From IMG/VR virus record IMGVR_UViG_3300027793_000007: a stretch of DNA of 61,053 nt, one strand, 5' to 3'. This DNA comes from a virus. Made by a program: the position numbers and the translations under genes. This document shows, in pieces, positions 23,643 through 54,388 of this stretch. Each line of letters begins with the position of its first letter. Position 1 is the first letter of the stretch. Under the pieces are notes generated by a model. The model worked only from the letters and a program-made list of their open reading frames with translations, did not search any database and was not told the DNA's origin.

Positions 23643-24540
23643 TATGCTTGACCACATTGACTTACTTACTCATAGGTTAGTCAAAGAGTCTCCAAGTGAG
23701 TATCGTTATCTATGCCCTGTATGTGATAACGATACTTTAACAGTTAAGAAGCATACTAGCCCTACCTTTACTGCAGGAGCTTACCAATGTTGGGCTGGCT
23801 GTCAATGCCATGAGATACGAGAGGCTATGGGTGTTAGAACTTACAACTCTAACACCGTATCTCTTAATAAGTGGAAAGCATCTAAACCTAAAGAATACCC
23901 ACCTGTAATACCACCACAACATTTGAGCTTTATCCCAGTAGAGCCTAGAGCGCCTAGCTTTAGGTGGGATGGTCGCAAGAGAGTGATGAGATATAACTAT
24001 AGCCCCACTCAATACACAGAGCGCATAGAGTCTATGCAAGTATCGGATGATGGTGAGTTAGTTAGAGATAAGACTTTTAGGCAGTACTCCAATGGGCGAA
24101 TAGGCAAAGGTAATGAGCCTTGGGATATGTATTTATGGAACAAGATCCCTTTGGACGAGGGTAATCTAGTTGTAGTTCCAGAGGGTGAGAAGTCAGTACA
24201 AGCATGGTGGTTACATGGCATAGCAGCTACTTGCCCTCAAGGTTCATGTTGGACTTCCACAGACCTTAAGAGATATGCACAACAGTTCAAAGACAAAAGC
24301 CTCTATCCTTTACTTATTCCTGATACTGACCTTGCGGGTGAGCGTAAGAGAGATAAGTGGCTAGAGGCTTGTCGTGAAGTTGGTCTTTGGTCTATGGTAC
24401 TTGACCTTAGAGAGTTGGTCTATTGGCAGGAAGGATGGGATAGCTATGAGTTGTTGATGCTACACACTACCTATACTTTGGGCTTTGTCAAAGACTTGTG
24501 TAACATCCAAACCCAAAGCCCCAGACAAGCTAACTACTAA
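23635..24540 (+). CDS. zinc-finger / Toprim domain protein (DnaG-like primase relative)
   Basis: CPVCDN...CWAGCQCHE zinc-binding pattern, then Toprim VVVPEGEKSV...LIPDTDLAGER. Confidence 0.65.
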   Translation: MFNMLDHIDLLTHRLVKESPSEYRYLCPVCDNDTLTVKKHTSPTFTAGAYQCWAGCQCHEIREAMGVRTYNSNTVSLNKWKASKPKEYPPVIPPQHLSFIPVEPRAPSFRWDGRKRVMRYNYSPTQYTERIESMQVSDDGELVRDKTFRQYSNGRIGKGNEPWDMYLWNKIPLDEGNLVVVPEGEKSVQAWWLHGIAATCPQGSCWTSTDLKRYAQQFKDKSLYPLLIPDTDLAGERKRDKWLEACREVGLWSMVLDLRELVYWQEGWDSYELLMLHTTYTLGFVKDLCNIQTQSPRQANY

Positions 24541-24918
24541 AGGATAATCTTCTCTAATAATTGTTGCGTACTCCCAATCTATCTGGGCTGCCTTTGGGAG
24601 ATTAGATAATGCTAACTCAACCGTATCTAGCAGCCCTAACTCTAGTAATGCAAGCCTAAGCCTACGAGCATCAATTTCTCTGATAGGCTTAGGCGTTTCA
24701 TTGATTATGGTGTTGTCCACAATTACAGCGCCATTGCTAATTCTCCATTGATTGCGATATTGCCTATCTGGTAATTCGGAATCATCAATAATTAAATATT
24801 CTTTTCCATCAGGGACATCCTTTGCGGCGACTTCTTCAATAGAAAGTCCGCAGTCGGGAATAGGGATAAGAATTGATGCACCACCATCTTCATTTTCAAA
24901 AACAATTACTTGAGACAT
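24460..24918 (-). CDS. hypothetical protein; possible tail-fibre assembly/chaperone-like
   Basis: Track ORF, last gene of the reverse-strand structural block. Its 3' end overlaps the convergent gene by 81 nt. Confidence 0.5.
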   Translation of the reverse strand: MSQVIVFENEDGGASILIPIPDCGLSIEEVAAKDVPDGKEYLIIDDSELPDRQYRNQWRISNGAVIVDNTIINETPKPIREIDARRLRLALLELGLLDTVELALSNLPKAAQIDWEYATIIREDYPLVVSLSGALGLDVTQVFDKAQSIGSV

Positions 24919-24920
24919 GG

Positions 24921-25301
24921 TTAACCAAAGATAGCGACGTTTACAAAATCCATATCAACATTTGTTAAAGCATCAAAAGCAAGGCAATTAAACCTTAAAG
25001 CAGTAGTAGTAGGATCGGCTGTTGAATACCCGAGAAGTGCCCCTTGAGCAGGATTTCCTGTACGCTTGGCAGGAGTAATGACAGCCGCGTAATTTACATT
25101 AGGCATTGCTGTAGTGAAATTTACTGTGTAATCACCTAAACCATTATCAGTAATGCTGCTTACATTGCCACTTCCTCGGATTGTAACAGTACCACCACCG
25201 TTGAAATTTACCCAAGCTCGACAAGCATAAGCAGGGGCAGATCCAGATTGCCCACCATCTAGTTGAACGGCTGATACACGATTCTCTAGAAGTGTTGCCA
25301 T
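24921..25301 (-). CDS. putative tail fibre / structural protein
   Basis: AWVNFNGGGTVTIRGSGNVSSITDNGLGDYTVNFTTAMP is a sequence type common in phage fibre proteins (from memory). Confidence 0.5.
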   Translation of the reverse strand: MATLLENRVSAVQLDGGQSGSAPAYACRAWVNFNGGGTVTIRGSGNVSSITDNGLGDYTVNFTTAMPNVNYAAVITPAKRTGNPAQGALLGYSTADPTTTALRFNCLAFDALTNVDMDFVNVAIFG

Positions 25302-25660
25302 TATGTACCTTCCTCTATTCTCATAAAGCCATTAGCACTAGCCCATATAGCACTAACAACTCCAGTGTAATCATCAAAGTAGAGATAGCCTTGTGGTTGT
25401 AGTAGATACACAGATGAGGTAGTTGCAGTACCACTCTTAGCTATGTACGCAACCGATGTGCTGTCATTTCTAAAGGATGCCCATTTACGAGATGTATTCA
25501 AGGCTAGCAAAGTTACTGATGTCGCACTACTAGCTACTGATGTGGTAGGGGCAGACGTGGCTTGGGGAGCAGCACCACCAGGGACTACTTGCCCAGTGCT
25601 TGGGTTTACATTTGTTACTAGGAGATATCTTTGCCCATTAGAGCCTACAATATCGCTCAT
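25301..25660 (-). CDS. hypothetical structural protein
   Basis: Track ORF coupled to its neighbours. Confidence 0.5.
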   Translation of the reverse strand: MSDIVGSNGQRYLLVTNVNPSTGQVVPGGAAPQATSAPTTSVASSATSVTLLALNTSRKWASFRNDSTSVAYIAKSGTATTSSVYLLQPQGYLYFDDYTGVVSAIWASANGFMRIEEGT

Positions 25661-25667
25661 GATTCAC

Positions 25668-26003
25668 CTATGGCTTTAGAACTAAGATATTGAATACTAA
25701 AGCACCTGGGGTAATACCAGCAGCAGTTGCATTACCAATACGAACAGTTACAGTGTTAGCAGCGCTTACAAAAGCAGTTAACTCTAAACCAGCTACTAAG
25801 GCAGTAGTAGGAGTTGCTAGTACAAAGTCTCCTAGAGAAGCGCCCGATACTGTAGCCGTTTGGTCATTGGTTACGTTGGTAGCAATTAAGGGAAAAGTTA
25901 GGGTTGTTTGAAGTGGGAGAAGAGAACCAAGGATTAAACCTCTTTGAGTCCCAGACAATTCATTGGTATTAGAGAGGGCGCGTTGTCCACCAGTAAAGCT
26001 CAT
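25668..26003 (-). CDS. hypothetical structural protein
   Basis: Track ORF trimmed to internal ATG (MSFTGGQRAL). The track start is a GTG inside motif copy 24. Confidence 0.5.
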   Translation of the reverse strand: MSFTGGQRALSNTNELSGTQRGLILGSLLPLQTTLTFPLIATNVTNDQTATVSGASLGDFVLATPTTALVAGLELTAFVSAANTVTVRIGNATAAGITPGALVFNILVLKP

Positions 26004-26039
26004 AAGTTTAGGGCAATAGTTGTAATTCCAATATACTAT

Positions 26040-26059
26040 CACGCTACGCTATGGGGTAG
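26040..26059 (+). promoter_or_regulatory. phage promoter-like motif, copy 24
   Basis: cacgctacgctatggggtag, 17 nt upstream of ATG 26077. Confidence 0.55.
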
Positions 26060-26076: not shown

Positions 26077-26181
26077 ATGGATATCGACTTAATCCTAAAG
26101 CTAGTTATCATTGGATATACAGCATTAGGTTTCCTAATTTGCTTAGGAATGTTTATTCTTATTCTAGTAGGTGAACTATGA
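26077..26181 (+). CDS. tiny membrane protein (34 aa)
   Basis: Hand-translated MDIDLILKLVIIGYTALGFLICLGMFILILVGEL, downstream of a motif copy. Confidence 0.45.
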   Translation: MDIDLILKLVIIGYTALGFLICLGMFILILVGEL

Positions 26182-26264
26182 CCTTATTCGTTTGGATTGT
26201 TATGGCTGGTAGTTTCGTAGTTGCGGGCTGGTACGCTAGAGGTTTATGGGACTTCTATAATTGA
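26178..26264 (+). CDS. tiny membrane protein (28 aa)
   Basis: Hand-translated MTLFVWIVMAGSFVVAGWYARGLWDFYN; ATGA coupling. Confidence 0.4.
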   Translation: MTLFVWIVMAGSFVVAGWYARGLWDFYN

Positions 26265-26297: not shown

Positions 26298-27089
26298 TTA
26301 AACCCATTTAACTCTACCCTTGCCACCACGATTAGACACTTCCTTAACACCTGTCCAATTGACCTTTCTATTGGACTCAGGTTCTAGAGTTGGAGGTGCT
26401 TGTGGCACTGATACTACATCACCTCTGATTAGCCTTACAGACATCACGTGTTTGCATATACCCCTAGAGCCTAGTACACCAAATACCTTTTGTTGTTCAC
26501 CTAAGAGTGTGGGGAGAAGGTCGGCTTGTTGTCCTAGGTAGTCAGGGCAAGTGCATCTATAGCCTAGCGCCCTACCAGTAGCTATAGACTGAGTTACTGT
26601 CTCTGGTGTGCCTATCGGTACAATCTCACCTACTGTGGTGACTAGCGCTATGGATTGCCCTTGGTCATTTAGGACAGTATATTGTCCATCTATACCTTTG
26701 CCTTGCGCTTCTAGTAGTTGTTCTGGTGTTAGTGGTTGATTATTCGGTATCGTATAAAAGTATCGCCCTAGTGACTTAACAGTACGCCCTTCGACCTTAA
26801 CAGCATAGGTAGTTGATTGTAGGGCTACCGTTGAGCTATCAATTACTCTAGCGGTTACTCGATAGTCAAAGGATTCGGCATTGGCAGTAAATTGTTGAGA
26901 GTCGGGTCTAATGAATCTAGCATCTAGAGTTAGCCCACTATCAGGGTCAGGCTTCTCAAACTTAACAGAGTCACTAGTATACTCAAGCGCTTTCATGTAA
27001 CGCTTGTACTGGTTAGATATGGTCTGTTGTTGGTCTGGGCTAAGGACAACCTTAGAGCCAAGGGAATAGTCGTTAGTACGATAGGTCAT
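26298..27089 (-). CDS. SWIM zinc-finger protein in the structural block
   Basis: YRCTCPDY...GICKHVMSV matches CxCxnCxH. Confidence 0.6.
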   Translation of the reverse strand: MTYRTNDYSLGSKVVLSPDQQQTISNQYKRYMKALEYTSDSVKFEKPDPDSGLTLDARFIRPDSQQFTANAESFDYRVTARVIDSSTVALQSTTYAVKVEGRTVKSLGRYFYTIPNNQPLTPEQLLEAQGKGIDGQYTVLNDQGQSIALVTTVGEIVPIGTPETVTQSIATGRALGYRCTCPDYLGQQADLLPTLLGEQQKVFGVLGSRGICKHVMSVRLIRGDVVSVPQAPPTLEPESNRKVNWTGVKEVSNRGGKGRVKWV

Positions 27090-27163
27090 TGCAAATACCT
27101 TACAAGTAGAACACTGAATCGAAGACTAGGACTCTTTGTACGCATGGCTTTAAGTCTTACAAG

Positions 27164-28666
27164 CTACGGACAGGAAGAAGAAACAGATATACTAACAGCG
27201 CCTTGACCAATCATAGAACAACTTACTCCATCAAAGCAAGTTACCCCCTGATCTACTCTATTGCCAAGCGAATCGACTACGATCACCGTATATCGTCCTC
27301 CGCAAATTCCATCTAAATATGTATAGACTGGGGTAAATGGAGCAACAGCTGAAGGGCTTAAAGTAAAAGTGTAAGTTTCTGGGGAACAATTAGCACATCC
27401 ACAAATGGGATTCCAAAAGTTTGCAGAAAGAGTAATAGTGCGGACAAGCGCCGCTTCACATTGTGCTTGCGAACTGTATGAGCCGAAAGCATCAATTACG
27501 CAGACACCTCCACTGCATGAATACCTGTTAAGAGAAGAACACCCTAGATTGTTAGGTGGGAATGTAGCAGGAGTGCAACAAAGGACAAACGAGCCAGCAG
27601 TCTCAAAATCGACCACCCCTCTAGCTATGGTTCCCGCAGGACATAGGTTGGTTCCCCCATTGAGGTTCATATCTACCTGTGCTGATTGAGCGCTAGTCAC
27701 GGTGTGCCAAGTACAGTTTTGGATAGGGGTACATCCACCAGCAGTAGGAGGTGGGACACTGTCACTAGGACTTGGGCTAGGCGCTGTAGGTGAGGATGGA
27801 CTACTAGGGTTAGGCGATCCCGGGTTAGGGTCTGGACTAGGAGAACTTGTGCCCGTGGGCGGTGTTGGTAATGGGGTAGGAGGAGGCGGAGTTACAGTGA
27901 AATCTGCTACTCCTTTCTTCCAAGTGGCAGAAGCAAAAGAGATGGGTAACACAAATTGTGTATCGACAGGAGTATTTGGATTTTCTTCAATCAAATCATT
28001 ACCACTACTAACAGTGGGCGATCCTCCTATAGATGCTGATACGCCACTACCGACTAGAGTGTTGGCTTGTAAATCCCACATCTCAAAGCTGCAAGTATAG
28101 GGTTGTGGTATTGCTAGTCCTAGATAAAGGTTCTGTGCTGGTGGGACATATACTCCTGCTTTGACAGGGAAGCTTCTAGGTATATCAGCCCTAGTAAGTG
28201 CGGGTATAGATATCTCAGCTAGGAGTGTGTAGGTATTGCGAACATTGGCTCTACCAGTGCCATCTTCTCTATATCCCTTCTGCCCGCCCGCAAAGATGCG
28301 TAGTGTATTAGCGATGAAGGATTGTGGTTCGGTTTGCTCAATGAATTCGTCAAGGGCATGAAGTGTTATTGTATCTATCCACTTACCAGCAAAATCTTGC
28401 TGCTCTGTGAGTTGAGGTATTGAATTAGCTATGTTTGATAGATTAGCGCTACTAAGAGATGGGGCTATAGCAGCATCTTGGTTGGCAGGAGTGAAAGCAT
28501 ATCCACCGCTAGAATCTCCATACCCCGTTAGCCTTAGATTACCATTACCAAACCTATCGCACTGAGTACCACGCAAGTCATAGCCAAGGAAAGAGCGCCC
28601 CTGTGGTTGAAAGGGTGTGACAAATTCTTTATAGTACTGGGATTCTTGAGGGGAGATTGTACTCAT
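27164..28666 (-). CDS. putative tail fibre / receptor-binding protein with a Pro-rich linker and Cys-rich C-terminal domain
   Basis: PPPPTPLPTPPTGTSSPSPDPNPGSPNPSSPSSPTAPSPSPS linker; about 20 Cys in the last 180 aa. Confidence 0.5.
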   Translation of the reverse strand: MSTISPQESQYYKEFVTPFQPQGRSFLGYDLRGTQCDRFGNGNLRLTGYGDSSGGYAFTPANQDAAIAPSLSSANLSNIANSIPQLTEQQDFAGKWIDTITLHALDEFIEQTEPQSFIANTLRIFAGGQKGYREDGTGRANVRNTYTLLAEISIPALTRADIPRSFPVKAGVYVPPAQNLYLGLAIPQPYTCSFEMWDLQANTLVGSGVSASIGGSPTVSSGNDLIEENPNTPVDTQFVLPISFASATWKKGVADFTVTPPPPTPLPTPPTGTSSPSPDPNPGSPNPSSPSSPTAPSPSPSDSVPPPTAGGCTPIQNCTWHTVTSAQSAQVDMNLNGGTNLCPAGTIARGVVDFETAGSFVLCCTPATFPPNNLGCSSLNRYSCSGGVCVIDAFGSYSSQAQCEAALVRTITLSANFWNPICGCANCSPETYTFTLSPSAVAPFTPVYTYLDGICGGRYTVIVVDSLGNRVDQGVTCFDGVSCSMIGQGAVSISVSSSCP

Positions 28667-28667: not shown

Positions 28668-28689
28668 GACGCTACGCTATGGGGGAAAG
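28668..28689 (+). promoter_or_regulatory. phage promoter-like motif, copy 25
   Basis: gacgctacgctatgggggaaag. Starts 1 nt from the divergent start codon (28666) and ends 17 nt upstream of ATG 28707. Confidence 0.6.
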
Positions 28690-28706: not shown

Positions 28707-28877
28707 ATGACTGATAGAGAGAAAGCTTTATTTATCCTAGGGTACTCTCAAGGCAATCAAGAAACAGTAATGAAGTTAATGTTGTTACTAGGTATCAGTA
28801 TTGACTTGCTTGAATCTTGGCATGATGAAATAGCTGAATTAAAGAAAATAATCTTTACTAGGATAGAGAATAAGTAG
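28707..28877 (+). CDS. hypothetical small protein (56 aa)
   Basis: Hand-translated; motif copy upstream. Confidence 0.45.
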   Translation: MTDREKALFILGYSQGNQETVMKLMLLLGISIDLLESWHDEIAELKKIIFTRIENK

Positions 28878-29703
28878 CAGTACTGAAACTAATAGGCATC
28901 GTAAAGCCAAGTTGTGCTTGAGGTATTACTACAGGTTCAGTCTGGGTTACTAAAGTAGTAGAGCCATTGGTAGTACCTAGAATGTCTGTACCGCTATCTC
29001 CAATTATGATTCCGCTAGATTCTTGGATTGAGCGTAAACCTGATGTCGGGTCAGTGCCAGTGTGTCTAAAGTTACGTGCATCTATAATACCAGAACTCTG
29101 TGCCCACAAAGTAGCAGTTAACCAGTTCAAAGCACCTGTAGCTGTTACTTGCCTATTCTGAAGTACTATCTTCCCAGAGCTTCTAGCAAAGGCTAAGGTA
29201 GGTAGTACACCAGTTGTATAGGTAAGGGCAAAGTCATTCATTACCCTAATCACACCATCTAGCTCTGATACTAGGAGTGCTGGCGATGTAGCTTGAGTAA
29301 TGTTGTAGGTGATACCTTCGGCTAGTTCTATGTATCCATTGACAGCAGATACAGCAAAGGTGTTTTCAGGGGCAAACGTTAAGTTCTTGAGGATATATCT
29401 AGTGCGTCTTTGATTGACTTGGATGTTACCCTTGATAATAGTGCCTGCCCCATTCCCAGTAATTGTAATGCTACCACCACCAGTTACTTCAGTTAACGTA
29501 GCACCGTTATAGTATCCATCAGCTAGTTTAATAGTGTGGTCATAGCCTCCAGTATCATACTTAGTACTAAAGGCTAGTATTGCTGCTTGTATAGTTTGAA
29601 AAGCTGTTTGTGGTGCTAGTCCATTATTAGTATCCGAACCCCACCAGTTGACGTAGAGCGTTAGGGATGAGGTAAGAAGTTGCCTGCAAGGGATGATGGA
29701 CAT
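28858..29703 (-). CDS. putative right-handed beta-helix tailspike-like protein
   Basis: The N-terminus LYVNWWGSDTNNGLAPQTAFQTIQAAI resembles pectate-lyase-fold proteins. Gly/Thr/Asn-rich repeats follow. Confidence 0.45.
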   Translation of the reverse strand: MSIIPCRQLLTSSLTLYVNWWGSDTNNGLAPQTAFQTIQAAILAFSTKYDTGGYDHTIKLADGYYNGATLTEVTGGGSITITGNGAGTIIKGNIQVNQRRTRYILKNLTFAPENTFAVSAVNGYIELAEGITYNITQATSPALLVSELDGVIRVMNDFALTYTTGVLPTLAFARSSGKIVLQNRQVTATGALNWLTATLWAQSSGIIDARNFRHTGTDPTSGLRSIQESSGIIIGDSGTDILGTTNGSTTLVTQTEPVVIPQAQLGFTMPISFSTATYSLS

Positions 29704-29705: not shown

Positions 29706-29725
29706 GACGCTACGCTAGGGGATAG
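29706..29725 (+). promoter_or_regulatory. phage promoter-like motif, copy 26 (consensus)
   Basis: gacgctacgctaggggatag, 2 nt from divergent start 29703 and 18 nt upstream of ATG 29744. Confidence 0.65.
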
Positions 29726-29743: not shown

Positions 29744-29905
29744 ATGGAAGTATCGCTAGAATTTCTTTACCACTACAACTGCGACAGTTGCAGCAAATGG
29801 TGGACGTGTGCTGATATTAAGCCACAAGAGGGGAGCCTTGTGTTTTGCCCTCATTGCGGTTATGTCAACGAAGTTGAATCAATTACAGAATATACAGTGA
29901 ACTAA
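29744..29905 (+). CDS. small zinc-ribbon protein (53 aa)
   Basis: Hand-translated; CDSC...CPHC. Confidence 0.5.
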   Translation: MEVSLEFLYHYNCDSCSKWWTCADIKPQEGSLVFCPHCGYVNEVESITEYTVN

Positions 29906-30184
29906 ATGCTACAAGTTAAAGACCCGCATGACATGAAAATTAAAACAGTTGACGAAGCATTCAAAGATGGAATTTTACATCAAGTGCCAGTCCCATCTGG
30001 CGAAGAAGCAAAGGAGAGCTATATTAAGGTCATGAAATTTAATCGTGCTTTGTTTCTCATGGCATACCGTCTTGGAGTTGCAACAGTGCTGCTAAATCAA
30101 TCAACAGAAACACTTGAAAGCCTATTGGCTGACCAGTGGATTAAAGACAATCTAATTACAGAGGACTCCAATGCTACAAGTTAA
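29906..30184 (+). CDS. hypothetical protein, MLQVKDP family member 1
   Basis: Track ORF. Its first 21 nt are repeated at 30171. Confidence 0.55.
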   Translation: MLQVKDPHDMKIKTVDEAFKDGILHQVPVPSGEEAKESYIKVMKFNRALFLMAYRLGVATVLLNQSTETLESLLADQWIKDNLITEDSNATS

Positions 30185-30503
30185 AGACCCACAAGAAGTG
30201 TTTGATGAAAATATCAAACCTCTATTGCTAGAAGAAGGCGCTGCACAAGATATTGAGCTAACAGATGAGATGCTTAACACTCCCTACTCCATCTTTGTCC
30301 TAGGCGAGATGTATGGAAGTATCAGCACTTGCCTAGCCCAGAACATTCCTATCCCTAAGGAAATGTGGGATATGCCTGTAGTTCAGAGCTTTGTTAGAGG
30401 TGATGTTGATGATGTGGTTGTGGTAGATGGGGTTGAGGCGTTAACCAATGATGATGTTATAGCCAAGATGCAATCCTCTGAACAATCTATCATCATCCTT
30501 TAA
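30171..30503 (+). CDS. hypothetical protein, MLQVKDP family member 2
   Basis: Track ORF. Confidence 0.55.
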   Translation: MLQVKDPQEVFDENIKPLLLEEGAAQDIELTDEMLNTPYSIFVLGEMYGSISTCLAQNIPIPKEMWDMPVVQSFVRGDVDDVVVVDGVEALTNDDVIAKMQSSEQSIIIL

Positions 30504-30956
30504 TTACTGCCCTAGGAATATAGCCCCAGCCGTATTCCACACAAAGGTAAATGTAGCAGGACTTGGGCTAGGCGATGTAGGAGGTGTGTAGGCTGGTACT
30601 AGTTCAACAAAGCCTAGTGCAATGTCAGTGCTAGCCGAAGTCCCTACAGTCCCCTTGAAGATAACACCACCAACAATGGGGGCAGCAGTAGCAGCCCATA
30701 GTGCTGTCCATACGGTGTTATCAAATCTCAGGGATGAGGCATTAGAAAGATAGGTGTTGGGATTAGTACCACTAGATTTAACTAGGTCTTTCCGCACATA
30801 GGAACCGCCACTAACCTCGTTAGTCAAATCAGCCCTTGTTGATACTGATGTTGAGGGCAGTGCGGTTACTAGTGCGATGTAGAAAGAGTCTGAGAGTAAG
30901 TTGACATTGACTCTAGCAATGTCGTTAGGAAATCGATTAAAGCGGTAGGAAGCCAT
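30504..30956 (-). CDS. hypothetical structural protein
   Basis: Track ORF trimmed from TTG 31007 to ATG 30956 (MASYRFNRF). Confidence 0.5.
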   Translation of the reverse strand: MASYRFNRFPNDIARVNVNLLSDSFYIALVTALPSTSVSTRADLTNEVSGGSYVRKDLVKSSGTNPNTYLSNASSLRFDNTVWTALWAATAAPIVGGVIFKGTVGTSASTDIALGFVELVPAYTPPTSPSPSPATFTFVWNTAGAIFLGQ

Positions 30957-31188
30957 GATAGTAGATAAGTTAAAAGGTAAGGTTGTTAAATCTGCAAAGT
31001 TTACCAATGAACATAGCGGGTATTACCCTGATATGGCTGGTGAAGTATCAATACTATTTGAGGATGGCAGTGAGTTAATCATTGAACCATTTGATTGCAA
31101 CTATGTAGATACAACCCTAATAGAACCCACCCTGAACAGTGATGTTATACCCATTGGGACTAACACTTTGGGAGAGGGCAGCGTATAA
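30955..31188 (+). CDS. hypothetical protein (77 aa), uncertain
   Basis: Track ORF with a plausible sequence but no motif copy upstream. Overlaps the 3' end of 31117..31581. Confidence 0.3.
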   Translation: MIVDKLKGKVVKSAKFTNEHSGYYPDMAGEVSILFEDGSELIIEPFDCNYVDTTLIEPTLNSDVIPIGTNTLGEGSV

Positions 31189-31589: not shown

Positions 31590-31609
31590 GACGCTACGCT
31601 AGGGGATAA
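31590..31609 (+). promoter_or_regulatory. phage promoter-like motif, copy 27
   Basis: gacgctacgctaggggataa, 21 nt upstream of ATG 31631. Confidence 0.65.
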
Positions 31610-45508: not shown

Positions 45509-45510
45509 GG

Positions 45511-46086: not shown

Positions 46087-46088
46087 AG

Positions 46089-46679: not shown

Positions 46680-47197
46680 TTGATAGGTGTACCAATGCGC
46701 TTAGATGCCGCATCAAACATAGACTGTCTTAGGTTAAGTTTACCTTGTTGTTCAGCTAATTCCTTATTCCCTTGCAAAGACTTGTCAGCCATCTTAGAGC
46801 CAAAGTCAAATTGCATTTGAGCTTGGTCACGTTGGAGGTCTTGCTGCCTATCAATTTGGTATTGCTGTAGTTTAAACTGTCTATCCTCGACAGCTTTAGC
46901 CATTGGCAGTTCAAGTTGTGCGGCACGTTCTCTAGGCTTGATTGCGTCTAAGGCTTTCCACTTGCCAAAAGAAAAGAAGTCTAGGTCAGTAATAGCTCCT
47001 GTATCGATACCTAGTTGTGCTGCTTTAAGCCTGTCTTCTGGGGATAAGCTACTACCACCAAACCTGAGACCAAATAGATTAAGGTTAGGAGCAGCATCGT
47101 ATAGCCTTTGCCTAAAGCCAGCATCATTAGCAGTATTTAGTAGACTTTCTCTATACTCGTCTTTAGGTGGGCTAGGAAATCCTTGCTGATATTCCAT
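46667..47197 (-). CDS. hypothetical virion-module protein
   Basis: Track ORF. Confidence 0.55.
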   Translation of the reverse strand: MEYQQGFPSPPKDEYRESLLNTANDAGFRQRLYDAAPNLNLFGLRFGGSSLSPEDRLKAAQLGIDTGAITDLDFFSFGKWKALDAIKPRERAAQLELPMAKAVEDRQFKLQQYQIDRQQDLQRDQAQMQFDFGSKMADKSLQGNKELAEQQGKLNLRQSMFDAASKRIGTPINWLG

Positions 47198-47787
47198 TAC
47201 AATCCTCCTGTCATTTGCATATATCTAGTAACTGGACTAGGTGATTGACCTTGCAGCATTTGAGTCTCAAAGTCAGTAGGTTTAGGTTTATTCATCCCAG
47301 AGGTTAGAGTGTACAGCCCAGTGTCAGCAGCAAATCCTATGGGCATATTGTATCCTTGACGGGAAGTCTGAGGATTACTCAATAGGTCTTTCTCTCTACT
47401 TCCCAGCCTTTCATTCACATAAGCTTTTCTTAGGGATTTAGGCTGGCTAGAGGATAAAGTGTTAAAGGTATCTCTAGAGTTTCTTAGTCTAGACTCTCCT
47501 ACTTTATTTAACTCTCTACCACCAAACTTAGTTCCTAACATCGTCCCACCAAAGGAACTGAAGGACTTTAAGCCAACATCATTGTTAGCTATGTCCATTG
47601 CTAGAGGGATAGCATCCATACCCAAGTTCATTAAGCCCATAGCATTAGGAGTGTAGGCTTGCTTAAGGAGGTTCAATGCACCAGCACCAGCACGAGCAGC
47701 ACCAACGGGAGCGCCCCCCATAAGTCCTAGCCCAGTAGCGCCTAACTTAAATCCTTTCATTAATGCGGCAACAAGTGGAAATGCCAT
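47197..47787 (-). CDS. glycine-zipper-rich protein 1 (putative internal/ejection protein)
   Basis: GATGLGLMGGAPVGAARAGAGA. Confidence 0.55.
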   Translation of the reverse strand: MAFPLVAALMKGFKLGATGLGLMGGAPVGAARAGAGALNLLKQAYTPNAMGLMNLGMDAIPLAMDIANNDVGLKSFSSFGGTMLGTKFGGRELNKVGESRLRNSRDTFNTLSSSQPKSLRKAYVNERLGSREKDLLSNPQTSRQGYNMPIGFAADTGLYTLTSGMNKPKPTDFETQMLQGQSPSPVTRYMQMTGGL

Positions 47788-49103
47788 TAGTTATCTCCTT
47801 GTTTAGCTATTCTCATAGGTCTTTTGCTTACGCTGTAGTCTTTGTTGTATTGGGGGTAATATGTTTGTTTAGGGATAGATGGTGCTGTGGGAGTATAAGC
47901 ACCTATGCCTGTCAACCCTAAAGCATCTAAGTAAAGGTCATTCTGTTCCACAGTATCCAATGGCTTCATGTTGTTTAAGTTAACAGCAATTCTACCACCC
48001 CTATCTTTGACCATAGAGCTTATTTCTTCTGGGTTTAGGGACTGCTCCCATTGCCAAGTATTGTTATCAGCTTTGTTGTAATAACCTAATGGATTCATAG
48101 CACTAGGGGATGTGCTAGAACCCTTGGCTAATTCATTGATAGTTTCAATACCATAGGCTCTGACGTTAGGATGTGGTTGACCAGCTTTAGCCAGTCCTTG
48201 CTTGACTAGTTCAGAATGACCAGCATCTAATGTAGATGGTGTTATTTGAACTACTGGTTGATTAAGTAAGTCAGTCCTATTCTCAAGTAATCGCCTATCT
48301 ACTAACATCCCGCTAGGATTAATTACCACTGTGTTTAGCCCATAGCTCTTGAATAAGTCTTCAGGGTCTACAAGGTTATCAAAGTAATCAGTAGGACTGT
48401 CATAAGATAATTGAGCCTTCCTTTGAGGTGTCTCATTAGCATAGTTACCTAGGTTTTCTATACCTTTCTTGGATAACTTAGATGACATCACGCCTAAGTT
48501 GCGGGCTAGATACATTCTGCTTTGGTCAGGTACTACCACTGATGGCTGACCTGTACTTGGATTGTTAGGCACTTCATCAGCAGGCTTAGCACCCCTAGGC
48601 TTAGGTGTAGGTCTATTAGGTTTGGTAGGTGGCGGTGGGGCAGCTACTACATCATCGATAGGTGTAGTAGCACTAGGCTTTCCCAAGTCTTGAGCCATCC
48701 GTCCTACAGGGAATCCAGCTTCAGGATAAGTTAGTACACCTCTCCTCAATGCTTCCCTCAACCCTAAAGTACCAGCACCAATGCCCATAGCAATTAGGGG
48801 TGATGCTTCAGTATCACTAGAGTTAGTGAATGCATTGTTAAGGTATCTAGCACCCTCTAATCCTAGTGCGCCAATACCAGCATAGTTATAGGGTGTACGT
48901 CCTTGTGTGCCTAGAGCTAGACCACTACCAACCGCTAAGCCGATAGGGTCAACATCTAAAGGTGCTACAACATTATAGGCAAGTGCGCCTAGACCAGTAG
49001 TAGCGCCAATAGCGGCTGGCAGGGCTAATCTAAGTGCTGTCTCATTATTAGCTAACTCTGGGATGAGTTCAGCTAAACGTCTGCGTAGTGGGGAGTAGGT
49101 CAT
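47787..49103 (-). CDS. glycine-zipper-rich protein 2
   Basis: AAIGATTGLGALAYN, GLAVGSGLALG, AMGIGAGTLGL; Pro-rich linker PPPPTKPNRPTPKPRG. Confidence 0.55.
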   Translation of the reverse strand: MTYSPLRRRLAELIPELANNETALRLALPAAIGATTGLGALAYNVVAPLDVDPIGLAVGSGLALGTQGRTPYNYAGIGALGLEGARYLNNAFTNSSDTEASPLIAMGIGAGTLGLREALRRGVLTYPEAGFPVGRMAQDLGKPSATTPIDDVVAAPPPPTKPNRPTPKPRGAKPADEVPNNPSTGQPSVVVPDQSRMYLARNLGVMSSKLSKKGIENLGNYANETPQRKAQLSYDSPTDYFDNLVDPEDLFKSYGLNTVVINPSGMLVDRRLLENRTDLLNQPVVQITPSTLDAGHSELVKQGLAKAGQPHPNVRAYGIETINELAKGSSTSPSAMNPLGYYNKADNNTWQWEQSLNPEEISSMVKDRGGRIAVNLNNMKPLDTVEQNDLYLDALGLTGIGAYTPTAPSIPKQTYYPQYNKDYSVSKRPMRIAKQGDN

Positions 49104-49105
49104 GT

Positions 49106-50050
49106 TTAACGCATCCTAGGAGAGTTTGCATATAATCCAGCCAGCCCTGCTTCTAACGGGAACTCTTTGCCGACATTCCATCCTCTACCTCTAGTAGTAT
49201 TTAAGGCTAACTCGTTTATCGTCAAAGGCGGCACTACAACTCTACTTGTAGTAGGCAAGTTAGGGTCGCGCACAGCTAAATCACCACCACGCTGATAGGG
49301 TAAAGCACCCATCACTGAAGGGCGAGCTACTGGTTCAGTCGATACATTGACTACACGAAAAGGGGTTGTTGGATCGGGTCTATTAGCTTGATACGTGTTA
49401 TCAGGATTAGCACTTGCTCTAGGGTAGCCAGAAGGAACACCATGATATTCGTCAGTACGATATCTACCTGTAGAGTTTTCTGGAATATTGTATACAGCTT
49501 TAGCGCTGTTAGCTACGTCAGCATTTCTACCCCTCAACATTGAGTATGCGATAGGTGCAAAACCGCCCAACGCTGCTAGCCCAACAGATGTAGCAGTAGC
49601 ATCATTATCAAATACACGACCTGACAAACCGCCAACAGTAGCAGCAGCACTACCAGCTAATGCAGCTTGCATATAAGGATTTTGCAATTGTCTTTCTGCA
49701 TAGCCTTGATTAGCTATTTGAACAGCAGCAGCTTTAAAACGGTTTAGGAACTTCTGATTCATCTCTGCTTCATTCAAACCTTCATACACGCCTCTAGCTG
49801 TACTAGCTCCTGTTCTATCAATGTATTGTTGACCAGCAAAACTCCTACCTTGTCTTAGAAGATTAGCTGCTAAAGGAGCGCTTAACACCCCCTGTAGCAA
49901 TACATTCTGGTCAGCACCATCCCCTAAATTGCCTACAGCAGTTAGACCGCCAACACCTAGAGCGCCTAGTCCGTAGTCAAGAGCTTCTTGCGCATACTGA
50001 TTGTCACCTACGCCAGCAAGGTAGCGTTTTGCGAGACTCATTGGATTCAT
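49106..50050 (-). CDS. glycine-zipper-rich protein 3
   Basis: YGLGALGVGGLTAVGNLG, AALAGSAAATVGGLSG. Confidence 0.55.
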   Translation of the reverse strand: MNPMSLAKRYLAGVGDNQYAQEALDYGLGALGVGGLTAVGNLGDGADQNVLLQGVLSAPLAANLLRQGRSFAGQQYIDRTGASTARGVYEGLNEAEMNQKFLNRFKAAAVQIANQGYAERQLQNPYMQAALAGSAAATVGGLSGRVFDNDATATSVGLAALGGFAPIAYSMLRGRNADVANSAKAVYNIPENSTGRYRTDEYHGVPSGYPRASANPDNTYQANRPDPTTPFRVVNVSTEPVARPSVMGALPYQRGGDLAVRDPNLPTTSRVVVPPLTINELALNTTRGRGWNVGKEFPLEAGLAGLYANSPRMR

Positions 50051-50058
50051 TGTTTTAC

Positions 50059-50532
50059 CTACTCAATAATAATTCTTTCTTTAGCAGCAGTCACAGGGAA
50101 TACATCAGCCCATATCTTCTTAGCTAGTGGCATAGCTTGACCGTAGTATCCCACAGAGCCAATCATGTTAGTGTCAATATCTTTACCACCAGTGATAGCG
50201 TTGCCAACATTGCCAAGTACACCACTATATAGTGATGCTTCACTACCACTTTCTAACATCTTGACGTATTCATTTCTAGCCCTTAGTTGATTAAGAGCAT
50301 CAGTGTTGATGATACGAGATACGCCTTGCCCTCCAAGGAGAGGAGCCATTTGTAATCCAGTAATTAAAGGATTAGCATTGTTAGTACCAGTAACAGCATT
50401 GTAGCCAGCTTGTCCAATAGCACCAATACCAGCACCTAATCCATAGTTAATACCTAGCTGAGTGTAGGGATTATCAATAAACTGGGGGATTACATTCTTT
50501 AACCCAGTAGGGTCAATACGAATAGGATTCAT
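50059..50532 (-). CDS. glycine-zipper-rich protein 4
   Basis: NYGLGAGIGAIGQAGYNAVTG. Confidence 0.55.
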   Translation of the reverse strand: MNPIRIDPTGLKNVIPQFIDNPYTQLGINYGLGAGIGAIGQAGYNAVTGTNNANPLITGLQMAPLLGGQGVSRIINTDALNQLRARNEYVKMLESGSEASLYSGVLGNVGNAITGGKDIDTNMIGSVGYYGQAMPLAKKIWADVFPVTAAKERIIIE

Positions 50533-50535
50533 GTC

Positions 50536-50922
50536 TTAGTTAAGATATTGTTGTCTCAAAGCTTCAGCTTGAAGTGCCATCAGTTGACCTTCAATCTCAG
50601 CATCACGTATAGCCTTCTCTTTCTTCTCAGGGAATTTATAGAGATTCCCTGATAACTTAGCTGCTTGTTGTAAAGCTTCCATGTCACTTAAAGGGTCGCC
50701 ATACACTTGTCTCCTCAAAGCTAAGTTAACGTTATCGCCAACCATAGCCATCTCATTAGCATTAGCTTGACCCGTTGCTTGAGTAGCTTGAATGGCTGGT
50801 TGTTGTGGATTACCCATCAATGCCATAGCTCCTAACCCTAGTCCAGCTACACCAACAGCAGGGATACCGTACTGTGCGTAGACAGGTAATGCATCCCACC
50901 TATCTCTTATTCCTTGCATCAT
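50536..50922 (-). CDS. glycine-zipper-rich protein 5
   Basis: GIPAVGVAGLGLGAMALMG. Confidence 0.55.
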   Translation of the reverse strand: MMQGIRDRWDALPVYAQYGIPAVGVAGLGLGAMALMGNPQQPAIQATQATGQANANEMAMVGDNVNLALRRQVYGDPLSDMEALQQAAKLSGNLYKFPEKKEKAIRDAEIEGQLMALQAEALRQQYLN

Positions 50923-50960
50923 AAGTTAATACCTTGTCTTTGCTTTAATCATACTATGTA

Positions 50961-52169
50961 TTACTTAAAGGATTGCGTATCAACATAATCCCATCCTTTG
51001 GTATTTGGGTTGTACCTGACATTAAGCCCTTTAACCGAATCTTGAGTGTCATGCCTCTTAGTTTGGAATTGATCAATGGCAGCTTCAACATCTTCAGTAT
51101 TAAAGTCATTAGGCTTAAAGTGTTTTCTAGCCCAATAGTTAAGACCAACACCAGCCCCAGTAGTTAATAATGCTGCACTCATAGGTACTTCATATCCTAA
51201 GAGGCTTATCGAATCTTCACCACTTAAACTCTTTTGTGTTTTAATAGCGCCTAACTCGGCTAGGCTAGGAACTACAGCACCTACAAGCCCCCCTATAGCA
51301 CCCCCTTTGAGCGCACCAGCTACTAAGTCCTCAGGTCTACCCATCTCAACCCTTTTAGGCGAATCAACCCAGAACCTACCTATAGCCTCAATATCAGCAG
51401 CTACAGGTTGTTTCTCATCAGTCCACTTAGATATAGGTATGTTCTCAGGATCAGTTACTACCCTAGGCTCTACCTTAATCTTACCGTCAGCGCCCCTTGA
51501 GTACTTACCTCTACGACTATAAGCCCCAAGTAAAGCACCCGCACCTAATCCAAGTGCTATTGACTTAGTAGGGTCATCTTGTAATCCAAAGAAGTCTTTA
51601 CTCATGAACCCACTACTCTGAACAGCAGCAGCATACTTCTCAGGTGTAACGTCAGGTCTTTCTTTGACTAGCTCCTCATAAGGCAAGATATTACCTTTCC
51701 TACCAATGAAGTACCTACCAGCAAACTCGCCCAATGGATTAGTAGTCTTAGTCTTATCAGTAGGGTCAGCAAATAGAGCCTGATATCCTTTAGGTCTACC
51801 AAACTCTCCTAGGTTACTTATATCTAAATTACCCGATGCTATAGGCATAACACCTAATGCTAAAGCAGCACCACCCAAAGCTTGATAACCCACAGGCATA
51901 CCAGTCACCTTTAGTGCATCACTACCAGCAAATGACGATACTGCCAAAGGATGGTTGTATCGCCAATAGGTATTTCTAGTCTCATCTCCTATAACATCAG
52001 ACGCTACCCTACCCGCAAAGCCTCCTATGTTCTGAGCAGCAGTTCTACCTTCACTCTTACCTAAGTTCTCATAAGCAGCTTTCCTATCTAATCGCGCTGT
52101 ATTAAAGTCACTCTTAAACCCATCTATCAGGTCATCTAGTATTGAAGCTGTACGGTTGGGAGTTGCCAT
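50961..52169 (-). CDS. glycine-zipper-rich protein 6
   Basis: LGGAALALGVMPIASG, ALGLGAGALLGAY, GALKGGAIGGLVGAVV. Confidence 0.55.
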   Translation of the reverse strand: MATPNRTASILDDLIDGFKSDFNTARLDRKAAYENLGKSEGRTAAQNIGGFAGRVASDVIGDETRNTYWRYNHPLAVSSFAGSDALKVTGMPVGYQALGGAALALGVMPIASGNLDISNLGEFGRPKGYQALFADPTDKTKTTNPLGEFAGRYFIGRKGNILPYEELVKERPDVTPEKYAAAVQSSGFMSKDFFGLQDDPTKSIALGLGAGALLGAYSRRGKYSRGADGKIKVEPRVVTDPENIPISKWTDEKQPVAADIEAIGRFWVDSPKRVEMGRPEDLVAGALKGGAIGGLVGAVVPSLAELGAIKTQKSLSGEDSISLLGYEVPMSAALLTTGAGVGLNYWARKHFKPNDFNTEDVEAAIDQFQTKRHDTQDSVKGLNVRYNPNTKGWDYVDTQSFK

Positions 52170-52173
52170 AGTT

Positions 52174-52590
52174 TTAATCAGTTAAAGTAGAACCTAAGAG
52201 TGACGCAGTAATTGGGAGTCCTGCCATATAAAGTAACTTAGCAGCATTAGCGTAAGGTATTGCTCTTTGGGCGGCATTGTTCATTTTGTCATAAATAGCG
52301 TTCCTTCTTGCCCTAGCAGCTTCCATCTCTGTATACCTAGGGTGTTGCTTGTCGCTAAATGAGATGCCCTCTCTTTTTGCTTTAGCTGCCGCACTAGCTA
52401 CATCTTGCCTAGAGTCAACATAAGCATTTTCATATGCATCAAACTCTTTAGCGTACTTATCTGCATTAGAGAATCTGTTTAAAGCAAAGCCCTCTACAGC
52501 GTTCCTACCAAAGTAAGCTCCCGCACCTCCTAACCCTAATCCAATGCCACCACCTATCAGTCCATTACCTTGACTATCTTGAGTATTCAT
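52174..52590 (-). CDS. glycine-zipper-rich protein 7
   Basis: GNGLIGGGIGLGLGGAGAYFG. Confidence 0.55.
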   Translation of the reverse strand: MNTQDSQGNGLIGGGIGLGLGGAGAYFGRNAVEGFALNRFSNADKYAKEFDAYENAYVDSRQDVASAAAKAKREGISFSDKQHPRYTEMEAARARRNAIYDKMNNAAQRAIPYANAAKLLYMAGLPITASLLGSTLTD

Positions 52591-52597: not shown

Positions 52598-52617
52598 GAC
52601 GCTACGCTATGGGGAAG
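52598..52617 (+). promoter_or_regulatory. phage promoter-like motif, copy 32
   Basis: gacgctacgctatggggaag, 28 nt upstream of ATG 52646. Confidence 0.6.
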
Positions 52618-52645: not shown

Positions 52646-53455
52646 ATGACAAACGCACTAGACTTAGCACTTGCCAATGCAGCATCTAATATGCCTAAAG
52701 GTGAAGAACTACATCTCGAAAACCTAGATTCAATTGCTGACCCTACTATTGATAAACCTCTCCCAATTTTAGGCGACCATGTTGATAGTATTGGAGCATC
52801 CGTACTCCCCAAACCATTTGCTGACAAATACAATGAGTTCATGCAAGAGCAATACCAAAACGTAAGCACTGGGTTTAAAGGTGCATATTTAGTCAACGAC
52901 CCTGAGCAAGATGGTTTATTGCTATCAAGCATCAAAGTTGCTATTGCTAAAGTTGACCTAGCCAACATTCGTCTCGACGCTCTAGCCGACATGATTACCG
53001 CAATCTCTAATACCAATACAGCTATTTGCCTTACTATTGAAAAAGCAGCATCTATGTCCTCAGAACCAAACCACAAACATCGCTCTCTCCACGAATGGGA
53101 TGACTCAGCCCTCCTCAACGAACTGGTAGAACGTGAGAACGACCTTATGCCTTTCTACTACGAACTACTCAAGCGTATTGGATCGCCTGAACTACAATCC
53201 CTTGTCATGTCTTCCATGCAAGGAAAGAACGCATCTATGGTAACTCTAGCCCAATTGTGTTCTGCATTAGCTCCTAAGCCTATCAACGCCCAATCCAGCT
53301 ATCAATCAAGTAGTTTGGCTGAAGATCAAATGGCTAAACTACAGCAAATGAGCGCTGAAGAAGCAAATCATTTTGCACAACAAATGAACACTGTAGTCCC
53401 AAAAGCCCCTTATCCTACTCGTTCACAACCCTACAATCCATACAGCGCGTCATAA
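52646..53455 (+). CDS. hypothetical protein (269 aa)
   Basis: Track ORF, preferred over the antisense 52636..53118, which is S/R/C-rich junk. Confidence 0.6.
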   Translation: MTNALDLALANAASNMPKGEELHLENLDSIADPTIDKPLPILGDHVDSIGASVLPKPFADKYNEFMQEQYQNVSTGFKGAYLVNDPEQDGLLLSSIKVAIAKVDLANIRLDALADMITAISNTNTAICLTIEKAASMSSEPNHKHRSLHEWDDSALLNELVERENDLMPFYYELLKRIGSPELQSLVMSSMQGKNASMVTLAQLCSALAPKPINAQSSYQSSSLAEDQMAKLQQMSAEEANHFAQQMNTVVPKAPYPTRSQPYNPYSAS

Positions 53456-53458
53456 ACT

Positions 53459-53671
53459 ATGAAAATCTCTGAACTCATTGCAGAACTAACTAAACATTTA
53501 GAACAACATGGCGATGTACCAGTAGCCCTTGCTGATTGGCAAGAACAATGGGCAAGTCCTAACCTAGATATTGTCAATAAGGACAGTATATATGTTGACC
53601 ATCGTTTTCAACGATGGGAGAACAGAGGTACTGACAAAGTAGAATCTGTTTTAATCATTGGCTGGGTCTAA
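53459..53671 (+). CDS. hypothetical small protein related to the MTVNEL family
   Basis: MKISELIAELTKHLEQHGDVPV. Confidence 0.5.
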   Translation: MKISELIAELTKHLEQHGDVPVALADWQEQWASPNLDIVNKDSIYVDHRFQRWENRGTDKVESVLIIGWV

Positions 53672-53847
53672 GGTAGTATTCTCTGATTAAGTTGAGCTAA
53701 CTTAATCCTAACCATTTGCTCATTGACTTCCCTCAAACCCATACTCGAAAGTAGAGGTACTGTAGTCCTATCTCCCCTTAGATAAGATTCCAATACCTCT
53801 ATCTTTCTCTTAGCCATTCTTCTTTGTTGTGCCGCCCGACCTGCCAT
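53668..53847 (-). CDS. hypothetical small basic protein (59 aa)
   Basis: Track ORF trimmed to MAGRAAQQRRMAKRK, so it no longer overlaps the upstream gene. Confidence 0.45.
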   Translation of the reverse strand: MAGRAAQQRRMAKRKIEVLESYLRGDRTTVPLLSSMGLREVNEQMVRIKLAQLNQRILP

Positions 53848-53848
53848 C

Positions 53849-54388
53849 TTATCTACTACCCATAAATCTAGACACCATCTCACTTATAGGCGATCTATTC
53901 ATCTCTATCATATTGCCTATCTGTTCAGGGCTATACTGCTTCATTCTACTATGCAATACAGGAGCAGATGCCATTGCCAATACATCAGTAGGTATTCCTA
54001 GCCGATGCCCTATACCATAGCTAGTGCCTTCAGCTTGTATTTCCTGAAGTGCTGTTGGCAAATCACTCCCACTATGATTGAAACCTATATGCGCTAGTTC
54101 ATGATTAAGTATCTTTTGCTGATAAGGTAAATCATCCTTCAGCCACACATTCTTGTCCCATGCTAACCCTCTAGTCGTAGGGCTACTCTCAACTATTCTC
54201 AACTGGCTAGGATATTGTATCAAGTCTTTAACTATATTCACCCCTAACTCATCAAGCATCCTTGAGTTAACATCACTATACCTATCAGCATACTTAGCCA
54301 TTCCTTGAGTCATAGCTTCTCTATAGTTGACTTTACCAACATCATCAAGAGTCCGTATTAACTGTATCTCTCGCGCTATCCTACTCAT
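53849..54388 (-). CDS. HExxH zinc metallopeptidase (ImmA/IrrE- or SprT-like)
   Basis: ILNHELAHIGFNH. Start moved to ATG 54388 (MSRIAREIQ); the track start is a GTG inside hairpin element H0. Confidence 0.55.
   Translation of the reverse strand: MSRIAREIQLIRTLDDVGKVNYREAMTQGMAKYADRYSDVNSRMLDELGVNIVKDLIQYPSQLRIVESSPTTRGLAWDKNVWLKDDLPYQQKILNHELAHIGFNHSGSDLPTALQEIQAEGTSYGIGHRLGIPTDVLAMASAPVLHSRMKQYSPEQIGNMIEMNRSPISEMVSRFMGSR

Follow-up and report, generated by a model that had tools for sequence, protein, structure and literature searches.

Layout of the late gene block and its islands

The uncultured phage genome IMGVR_UViG_3300027793_000007 from IMG/VR (61,053 bp, all of it analysed and called here the window) carries a minus-strand block of head and packaging genes (24460-54388) that is broken by ten plus-strand islands of small genes, most of which begin with a copy of one short motif. 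The original prediction had placed ten forward-strand islands in this block, and a map of open reading frames (ORFs) located every one of them; together they hold 24 ORFs and 6.6 kb, ~22% of the late block. Matches of the minus-strand genes to PHROG profiles comprise the major head protein, a portal-like virion protein, and the large terminase. Lake-metagenome contigs of 52-64 kb contain the same gene set in circularly permuted order; therefore the window should be an essentially complete genome and, judged by gene order, is a circular permutation of a phage genome of ~61 kb. No match was obtained when 8 kb were compared by megablast with GenBank phages, and comparison of proteins gave a single cultured relative, the distant Synechococcus phage S-EIVl (portal 31%, terminase 37% identity). 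A scan of metagenomes with the portal profile gave short contigs only. For the comparisons below, 32 late genes were mapped, junction by junction, onto 17 related loci, which are referred to by L numbers. The late-gene proteins of the close relatives L003, L006, L007, L012, and L028 are 75-97% identical to those of the window; L010 and L009 are distant, with 54% identity in the portal.

The late genes form clusters R1 to R11 on the minus strand, and the islands and the motif copies that head them lie between these clusters on the plus strand. R1 (24460-26042) comprises four genes, recognized from ORFs and coding scores. It is followed by the motif copy ACGCTACGCTATGGG (26041-26055), from whose 10-nt core 25 nt lead to the ATG of island 1 (26077-26264), consisting of two tiny hydrophobic, membrane-like ORFs (26077-26181, 34 aa; 26178-26264, 28 aa). 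R2 (26298-28666; 263 and 500 aa) is conserved in relatives, and 2 nt off its reverse ATG at 28666 lies the motif copy (28669-28683) of island 2 (28707-28877), a single 56-aa ORF, called from ORF and coding score, whose 3' end overlaps the 281-aa gene of R3 (28858-29703). The next copy (29707-29721), 3 nt off the reverse ATG at 29703, heads island 3 (29744-30503), which has three ORFs (53, 92, and 110 aa) with ratios of nonsynonymous to synonymous substitution rates (dN/dS) of 0.11-0.39. Between R4 (30504-31581; 167 and 154 aa) and R5 (33243-33707; 154 aa) are a motif copy (31591-31605) and island 4 (31631-33265) with six ORFs, just the first two of which are shared by relatives; its ORFs 32253-32513 and 32510-32773 are tandem paralogues. 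Island 5 (33719-34203) has two ORFs and no motif copy, and is followed by the two paralogous 145-aa genes of R6 (34157-35062), the motif copy at 35105-35119, and island 6 (35139-35372), one 77-aa ORF supported by its coding score. R7 (35442-37774) includes the gene of the major head protein (36548-37774; phrog_1357), and the variant motif CCCTACGGTAA (37806-37816), present in the same version in L029 and L030, heads island 7 (37842-38126; one 94-aa ORF). R8 (38110-40735) consists of the portal gene (38630-40735; phrog_20475, with PF05133 carried by some of the portal homologues) and a 300-aa ORF (38110-39012). The motif copy at 40771-40785, within which lies a crossover relative to L012, heads island 8 (40804-41562; one 252-aa ORF), and the copy at 43389-43403, 6 nt off the ATG of the large terminase subunit in R9 (41718-43382; phrog_38), heads island 9 (43426-44442; five small ORFs with coding scores). 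R10 (44414-52590) has twelve tightly packed genes and is island-free in the window, with islands at two of its junctions in relatives. The last copy (52599-52613), 8 nt off the reverse ATG at 52590, heads island 10 (52646-53671; ORFs of 269 and 70 aa, conserved in L013, L016, and L017), and the two genes of R11 (53668-54388) end the block, with a conserved hairpin 1 nt upstream of the ATG at 54388. At their 3' ends, five islands run 4-47 nt into the 3' end of a reverse gene, one adjoins it, and the other four stop 33-155 nt short.

Within R8, the portal gene shares its final 383 nt, in another frame, with the minus-strand 300-aa ORF 38110-39012, whose full open frame is kept in 14 relatives with 42-100% identity. 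Either two genes overlap here at length in different frames, or the ORF is a frameshift product.

Coding status of the island genes

A codon model, for which the long ORFs of the window served as training set, gives the island ORFs scores of 0.11-0.26 per codon and the neighboring reverse genes 0.12-0.40. The dN/dS of island ORFs with homologues is 0.06-0.69, mostly below 0.5, vs. ~1.1-1.3 in the out-of-frame control; for late genes it is mostly 0.04-0.25, rising to ~0.6 in some near-identical or tail-region pairs. The islands differ from the late genes in GC content (38.3% vs. 43.2%; Mann-Whitney P ~1e-6) and in median protein length (76 vs. 171 aa). No functional match was found for island proteins in Pfam or PHROG, and a single tandem duplication, the pair in island 4, was seen among them. 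Free-standing homing endonucleases were considered as island genes and rejected, as no HNH, GIY-YIG, LAGLIDADG, or related domain was found with Pfam and PHROG. By codon usage and substitution pattern, the islands are real, fast-evolving, low-GC accessory genes. The codon scores, the dN/dS values, and the motif or its variant at nine island heads thus bear out the earlier proposal that the islands are genuine genes headed by (presumed) promoters.

The motif at the island heads

Eight islands are headed by ACGCTACGCTA(T)GG(G/A) and island 7 by the variant CCCTACGGTAAGGG at 37806, island 5 (33719) being the one with no copy. Perfect copies of ACGCTACGCTAnGGG start at 26041, 28669, 29707, 31591, 35105, 43389, and 52599, and a copy with one mismatch at 40771. 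When up to two mismatches are allowed, ACGCTACGCTANGGG has 22 matches in the window vs. 0.22 expected from shuffles. Genome-wide, 30 plus-strand copies differ by no more than one mismatch from the 10-nt core CGCTACGCTA, and a degenerate core, C[GC]CTACG[CG], occurs 30 times on the plus strand and 4 times on the minus strand. Non-coding sequence makes up 14% of the genome and holds 23/30 of the plus-strand copies (P ~3e-14). Nowhere in the genome is the consensus matched better than by the island copies; in these, 20-36 nt separate the end of CGCTACGCTA from the ATG, often with an intervening GAGG-like ribosome site. The original prediction, that the motif is set against the start codon of the neighboring reverse gene, is correct for six islands, where its 5' edge is 0-9 nt from that codon, and does not apply to three others, where the distance is 31-42 nt. 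The motif ends 3' in a run of G. Promoters that phage single-subunit polymerases use also end in this way. The flanks upstream of the 11-nt core show no conservation, and no conserved stem-loop was found beside the motif.

The motif is not confined to the late block. Plus-strand genes of replication type are also headed by it, namely an exonuclease (16868-17791), a primase-like gene (23632-24540), and MazG, and a copy at 57144 precedes the gene of a 951-aa protein. It is kept in all relatives, in whose late-block loci the 9-mer core occurs 0 times in sense and 35 times in antisense orientation. The motif, (G)ACGCTACGCTA(T)GGG, is presumed to be a promoter, the sole reading that covers all of its copies.

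No ORF follows the two motif copies at 15614 and 12691, whose products may be non-coding RNAs. Motif-like copies on the minus strand are clustered in one place only, a 340-nt gap (10108-10447), where those at 10205-10208, 10371, and 10444 face a plus-strand copy at 10289.

A candidate RNA polymerase

The 951-aa protein (57199-60054, plus strand, outside the late block) is a predicted two-barrel (double-psi beta-barrel) single-subunit RNA polymerase (RNAP), a class that includes YonO, P23-45 gp64, crAss gp66, and QDE-1. Its family has at least 40 metagenomic homologues, 20 of which were used to build an alignment and an AlphaFold (AF2) model. The sequence CTMDFDGDRNS, with DFDGD at residues 536-540, is conserved in 15/20 aligned homologues, and this protein is the only large ORF product of the window with a DxDGD-type motif. 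Motifs of the DFDGD type are the metal-binding signature of cellular-type RNA polymerases. The model has a predicted local distance difference test (pLDDT) score of 67. A Foldseek search of the PDB with it found QDE-1 (2j7n) over the whole length (E 1.7e-9, probability 1.0), Arabidopsis RDR2 (7eu1_M), the gp64 RNAP of Thermus phage P32 (8f72, E 5e-4), and P74 gp62; P23-45 A7XX94 was among the matches to viral models in BFVD. It is thus probably, with moderate confidence from the model, a two-barrel single-subunit RNAP. Since a motif copy at 57144 precedes its own gene, and since the motif version differs in a relative whose RNAP is 51% identical, it is likely that this RNAP-like protein reads the motif. 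The analysis points to a previously undescribed clade of phage two-barrel RNAPs with a candidate promoter of 11-16 nt.

In the relative with the 51% identical RNAP (contig Ga0672968_0000328), a different motif, CCCTACGGGTA or CCCTACGGG(T/G)A, is found at equivalent positions. The two versions are mixed in contig L029, and island 7 of the window carries the second.

A polymerase of the T7 family was rejected as the reader of the motif, as neither the 951-aa protein nor a 760-aa protein has a match to PF00940 or any other Pfam family. The latter (5318-7600, plus strand) is conserved, with 20 metagenomic homologues, and has no Pfam or other family match; it was tried as a candidate polymerase, and despite these homologues its AF2 model was unusable (pLDDT 44). 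No DNA polymerase was recognized among the products of the 61-kb window.

Variability of the islands among relatives

In the close relatives, antisense islands of 200-1,700 nt with 1-6 ORFs are present at the same junctions, and their content is often unrelated. The same pattern is seen with independent gene calls in L028-L030. Islands are also present at junctions that are closed in the window, 44414|45062 in L006 and 47787|49106 in L012. L010 and L009 share the late genes of the window and their order, with gaps of a few to tens of nt between them (in L010, only 4-20 nt at most junctions), and have no antisense ORF. Therefore, a contiguous late operon is taken as the ancestral state and the islands as insertions.

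Several island borders coincide with the motif. The portal-terminase junction contains three cassettes in L012 and one in the window, between flanks that are 99% identical. The sequence of the window at this junction equals the upstream flank of the first L012 cassette joined to the body of the second, and the point of the switch is inside the shared 11-nt motif ACGCTACGCTA at 40771. A further L012 cassette starts where the homology with the window stops, which is the 5' edge of its motif. Segment 37807-38108, that is, island 7, is a clean 302-nt indel relative to L003, L004, L007, and L028, with the 5' edge of the variant motif as its left edge. Across comparisons, 58 endpoints of homology (high-scoring segment pairs) fall at motifs vs. 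7.6 expected. In addition, solo antisense motif copies with no ORF are found in L009 (1144), L010 (8004), and L028 (14682), 1-3 nt off late-gene start codons; such copies are expected as scars of motif-motif recombination. The variable, mobile cassettes of promoter and ORF, with their borders at the motif, and the spread of the motif over the whole genome had been missed by the original prediction, whose interpretation as a whole is partly supported.

Signals on the late strand

It had also been argued that the gaps between reverse genes leave no room for reverse promoters. Signals on the late strand are indeed scarce in motif and sigma-70 scans; however, the argument ignores promoters that may lie inside island coding sequence. 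Counts of k-mers found no second repeated motif on either strand, and enumeration of the 100 nt upstream of 24 reverse genes found a single shared element, the reverse complement of the plus-strand motif. Beyond this element, scans with degenerate cores and with the extended -10 gave no late-strand motif, and those with the extended -10 and TATAAT were uninformative. Sigma-70-like sites are fewer than in shuffles (22 vs. 41.9 and 27 vs. 40.5). Terminator-like hairpins are not enriched (9 vs. 12.5 expected), and at island ends none rises above chance. Just past the motif, the sequences of the window and L012 are unrelated, and the portal gene downstream is 99% identical. The differences in islands between near-identical genomes, this comparison with L012, and the lack of intergenic room in island-free relatives together argue that late expression is independent of promoters borne by islands. 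The economical inference would be minus-strand read-through across the islands from a few upstream starts. On the plus strand, island 5 has no promoter and could be reached only from 31591 across 33243-33707, therefore read-through antisense to a late gene is implied there as well.

Base composition was considered as a footprint of plus-strand transcription. The GC skew at third codon positions (GC3 skew) is positional, the plus strand being G-rich at ~25-46.7 kb for both gene orientations and C-rich at ~47-56 kb. The island-free L010 has a similar but weaker codon skew, and the GC3 skew may come from replication or from dominant transcription.

Proposed explanation and alternatives

The explanation favored with some confidence is that the islands are mobile promoter-ORF cassettes that were inserted antisense in an ancestral late operon and are similar to morons and to the promoter-early stem-loop (PeSL) cassettes, with the motif of the islands read by a phage RNAP and the late genes transcribed through them. 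It starts from direct observations: the architecture, the statistics and strand bias of the motif, the signs that the islands are coding, their variability among relatives and absence from distant ones, the breakpoints at motifs, and the presence of an RNAP-like protein. It is proposed that the two-barrel RNAP (57199-60054) reads the motif, ~30 copies of which lie nearly all on the plus strand and a short distance before genes, and that the minus-strand head and packaging genes descend from a contiguous, tightly packed late operon. Cassettes of a promoter and 1-6 accessory ORFs would have colonized the junctions of this operon in the clade, always in antisense orientation, and would be turned over rapidly, at least partly by motif-motif recombination, which would preserve orientation and could leave solo promoters behind. 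With no terminators in the cassettes and no phage promoter on the late strand, minus-strand late transcripts would cross the cassettes and cassette transcripts would run antisense into late genes. The polymerase collisions, the pairs of sense and antisense RNA, and the possible timing switch of the original prediction are, likewise, predicted consequences. The late transcripts would probably come from a different form of polymerase, e.g., host RNAP, and the two kinds of transcription would be separated in time; that the late RNA is made by host RNAP, possibly modified, is a guess by analogy. The antisense orientation could arise with no regulatory role in two ways. An early or middle promoter inserted in sense, with no terminator, would activate late genes prematurely, and motif-motif recombination would keep the orientation of the first copy.

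Several results weigh against this explanation or parts of it. In L030 and L031 the motif version CCCTACGGG(T/G)A is found on both strands, also before late genes (L030 1400, 6841, and 7139, plus strand; L031 1934, 4530, 7263, and 8242, minus strand), and antisense islands are present despite this, so by these positions strand exclusivity is a feature of the clade and not a rule of the family. The two polymerases of the original prediction have the encoded RNAP-like protein and the presumed one-strand promoter in their favor, but it follows from L030 and L031 that the architecture does not require two. As a late-strand promoter was not found, late promoters may lie inside islands. The assignment of the 951-aa protein is weakened by TM-scores of ~0.32, by pLDDT below 50 around DFDGD, and by the absence of any sequence or profile match in Pfam, PHROG, and PDB, the family profile also finding none among PDB sequences; in the five most distant homologues, SFDEG replaces DFDGD. 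As for recombination, the breakpoints in all pairs compared number 16 at island 3' ends and likewise 16 at motif ends, so that their enrichment is unspecific, and a crossover within the motif is seen at one junction only, that between the window and L012.

The SFDEG homologues are P0056-P0060, one of them from a Pseudanabaena metagenome-assembled genome; they are possibly inactive or repurposed. A tblastn search of GenBank phages gave no match to the 951-aa protein.

It is conceivable, if unlikely, that the antisense promoters are themselves the selected device, with head-on transcription and antisense RNA repressing the late genes until the polymerase is switched and the ORFs being secondary cargo. 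The island promoters being the best consensus matches of the genome, the ORF-less solo antisense copies at late-gene start codons in L009, L010, and L028, the probable antisense run-on from island ends that have no terminators, and the late strand with no phage promoter in this clade would all suit such a device, and in LUZ19 an antisense phage-specific promoter overlaps structural genes (PMC10914365). The idea can be extended to a distributed brake, in which nine head-on promoters, with the solo copies of relatives, act by transcription interference and antisense RNA while the late genes await a second polymerase activity; this extension is equally improbable. However, the number, position, and content of islands vary among close relatives, and a relative with no islands has retained the same set of late genes; this would be more natural for passengers than for a tuned timer. 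Scars of motif-motif recombination account equally well for the solo copies, and the 8-kb cluster 44414-52590 lacks any island. The best fold matches of the 951-aa protein, QDE-1 and RDR2, are RNA-dependent polymerases, and because of this it was also considered that late-sense RNA is copied from long plus-strand antisense transcripts; this is very unlikely, with a probability close to nil.

Rather than mobile cassettes crossed by late transcripts, each reverse cluster might have its own weak promoter of host type, or one dependent on a factor, in or beside the adjacent island, with little transcription across islands. This is a doubtful reading, for which minus-strand -10-like hexamers in AT-rich island leaders (e.g., TATAGT at 40766 and TATACT before 52590) and a perfect TATAAT before 36474 can be cited, as well as the fact that degenerate promoters would evade k-mer searches. 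It is opposed by the deficit of sigma-70-like matches relative to shuffles and by the lack of any shared minus-strand element other than the reverse complement of the plus-strand motif. It also has to face the wholly different sequence past the motif in L012, beside an almost unchanged portal gene, and the junctions of L010, whose gaps mostly leave no room for a promoter. A very small probability is assigned to the possibility that the motif is no promoter and instead serves replication, recombination, or packaging as a strand-polar DNA signal, or acts as an RNA element on the minus-strand late transcript, the islands being expressed in some other way. The extreme strand bias resembles that of polar sequences, many late-gene start codons have the reverse complement 0-9 nt ahead of them, and recombination breakpoints fall at the motif. 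Nevertheless, the distance to the reverse ATG varies from 0 to 42 nt, and intergenic copies lie 20-36 nt before plus-strand starts throughout the genome, including regions with no minus-strand genes; moreover, the terminal G run of the motif resembles known start sites of phage RNAPs, and the motif version changes with the RNAP lineage.

Comparison with known systems

The properties of the islands most closely match those of PeSL cassettes, beside morons. PeSL cassettes are known from T4-type phages (PMC2839356; PMC4122927) and share with the islands a short conserved phage promoter motif before each small novel ORF or group of ORFs, differences in cassettes among close relatives, and junctions of insertion, deletion, or replacement at the motif. 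They differ in having a stem-loop or terminator half, which is absent here, and in being read by host sigma-70, the reader here presumably being the phage two-barrel RNAP. PeSL cassettes are also grouped in hyperplastic regions, whereas the islands are scattered singly among structural genes and are always antisense.

Classic morons carry their own terminator, are usually few, and are mostly co-oriented; they are said to have been described in lambdoid phages by Juhala, Hendrix, and colleagues in 2000. Single-gene transcription units embedded on the opposite strand have been shown in phiKZ (PMC10914365). With both, the islands share extra genes with their own (here presumed) promoter between conserved late genes, atypical base composition, and absence from relatives. 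In contrast to morons, there are ten islands in 30 kb, all antisense, with no detectable terminator and one common phage-specific promoter.

As for the polymerase, gp64 of P23-45 acts at conserved promoters of its own, which serve the early genes and some of the middle genes, host RNAP making the late RNA (PMC10770324), and YonO of SPbeta transcribes that phage's late genes as a single operon (PMC5467207). Like these, the protein of the window is predicted to be a single-chain RNAP with a motif of DxDGD type and with kinship to cellular RNAPs and QDE-1. With P23-45 it would further share a promoter class of its own; in P23-45, host RNAP takes care of the late genes. The similarity is at the level of the fold, with no detectable similarity in sequence and a different promoter sequence. 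The late-gene role of YonO is the opposite assignment, and neither P23-45 nor SPbeta has been described with antisense cassettes inside the late operon.

In N4, the early and middle genes that depend on phage RNAPs lie on one strand and the late structural genes, transcribed by host RNAP, on the other; the strands are segregated in large blocks and not interleaved, and the N4 RNAPs belong to the T7-like family. In T7-like genomes, coding is essentially on one strand. Phages of the T7 and phiKMV type share with the window many near-identical short promoters with a G-rich start, but the polymerase of the window is not of the T7 family. In LUZ19, promoter P001 fires antisense across structural genes (PMC10914365), one antisense promoter vs. 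nine here.

The components thus have precedents in two-barrel phage RNAPs, promoter-bearing cassettes, and the single antisense units of phiKZ and LUZ19. It is the combination that is unusual, with ten head-on units in 30 kb, one phage-specific promoter and none on the late strand, no terminators, and an RNAP clade not described before. If the proposed explanation is true, ~ten head-on encounters within 30 kb would be a natural test of convergent transcription, for the polymerases and for the RNAs they make. Few such pairs of polymerase and promoter are known, and as orthogonal expression tools they would have practical interest. A route of gene gain is also suggested, in which promoter copies may serve both as expression signals and as portable recombination sites that fix the orientation of the insert.

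The early region and other features

A second class of conserved plus-strand motif, GTRRCTTAACTYTYTTANCTWCG, has three copies (55566-55588, 55984-56006, and 56790-56812) vs. 0.01 expected. The RNAP gene is preceded by three genes, and each of these has one copy 50-60 nt ahead of it. The motif is likely to be the promoter class of the earliest genes. Strong intrinsic terminators on the plus strand, with stems of 17-20 bp and T runs (56601-56638, 60065-60110, and 60328-60370), bracket the early region and the RNAP gene, and are followed by motif copies at 60405 and 60453. The arrangement is a T7-like layout with an early-to-middle boundary. Three copies of an operator-like palindrome, GATTATACGnnnnCGTATAATC, lie close to the early promoters (55167-55187, 56683-56703, and 56713-56733).

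Between the late block and the early genes lies a 1.2-kb non-coding stretch (54389-55600) with conserved hairpins and repeats. Hairpin ACAGGGGACACCCCTGT is separated by 1 nt from the ATG with which the first minus-strand gene begins, also in L014 despite a different gene there. Plus-strand hairpins CGGGGAGACYCCGTGAC occur three times (54774, 55052, and 55138), as do GNRA-type hairpins GCCTCGRAAGAGGTGA (54455, 54527, and 54705). The hairpin geometry, a stem of 5-7 bp with a 3-nt loop, is reminiscent of the hairpin promoters of the N4 virion RNAP. The stretch 54389-55600 is the candidate start region for late transcripts; no late promoter could be assigned within it. Elsewhere in the window, a plus-strand segment of 127 nt (16060-16186) has an Rfam tRNA match of 40.4 bits; it was not called by ARAGORN and is possibly an interrupted tRNA.

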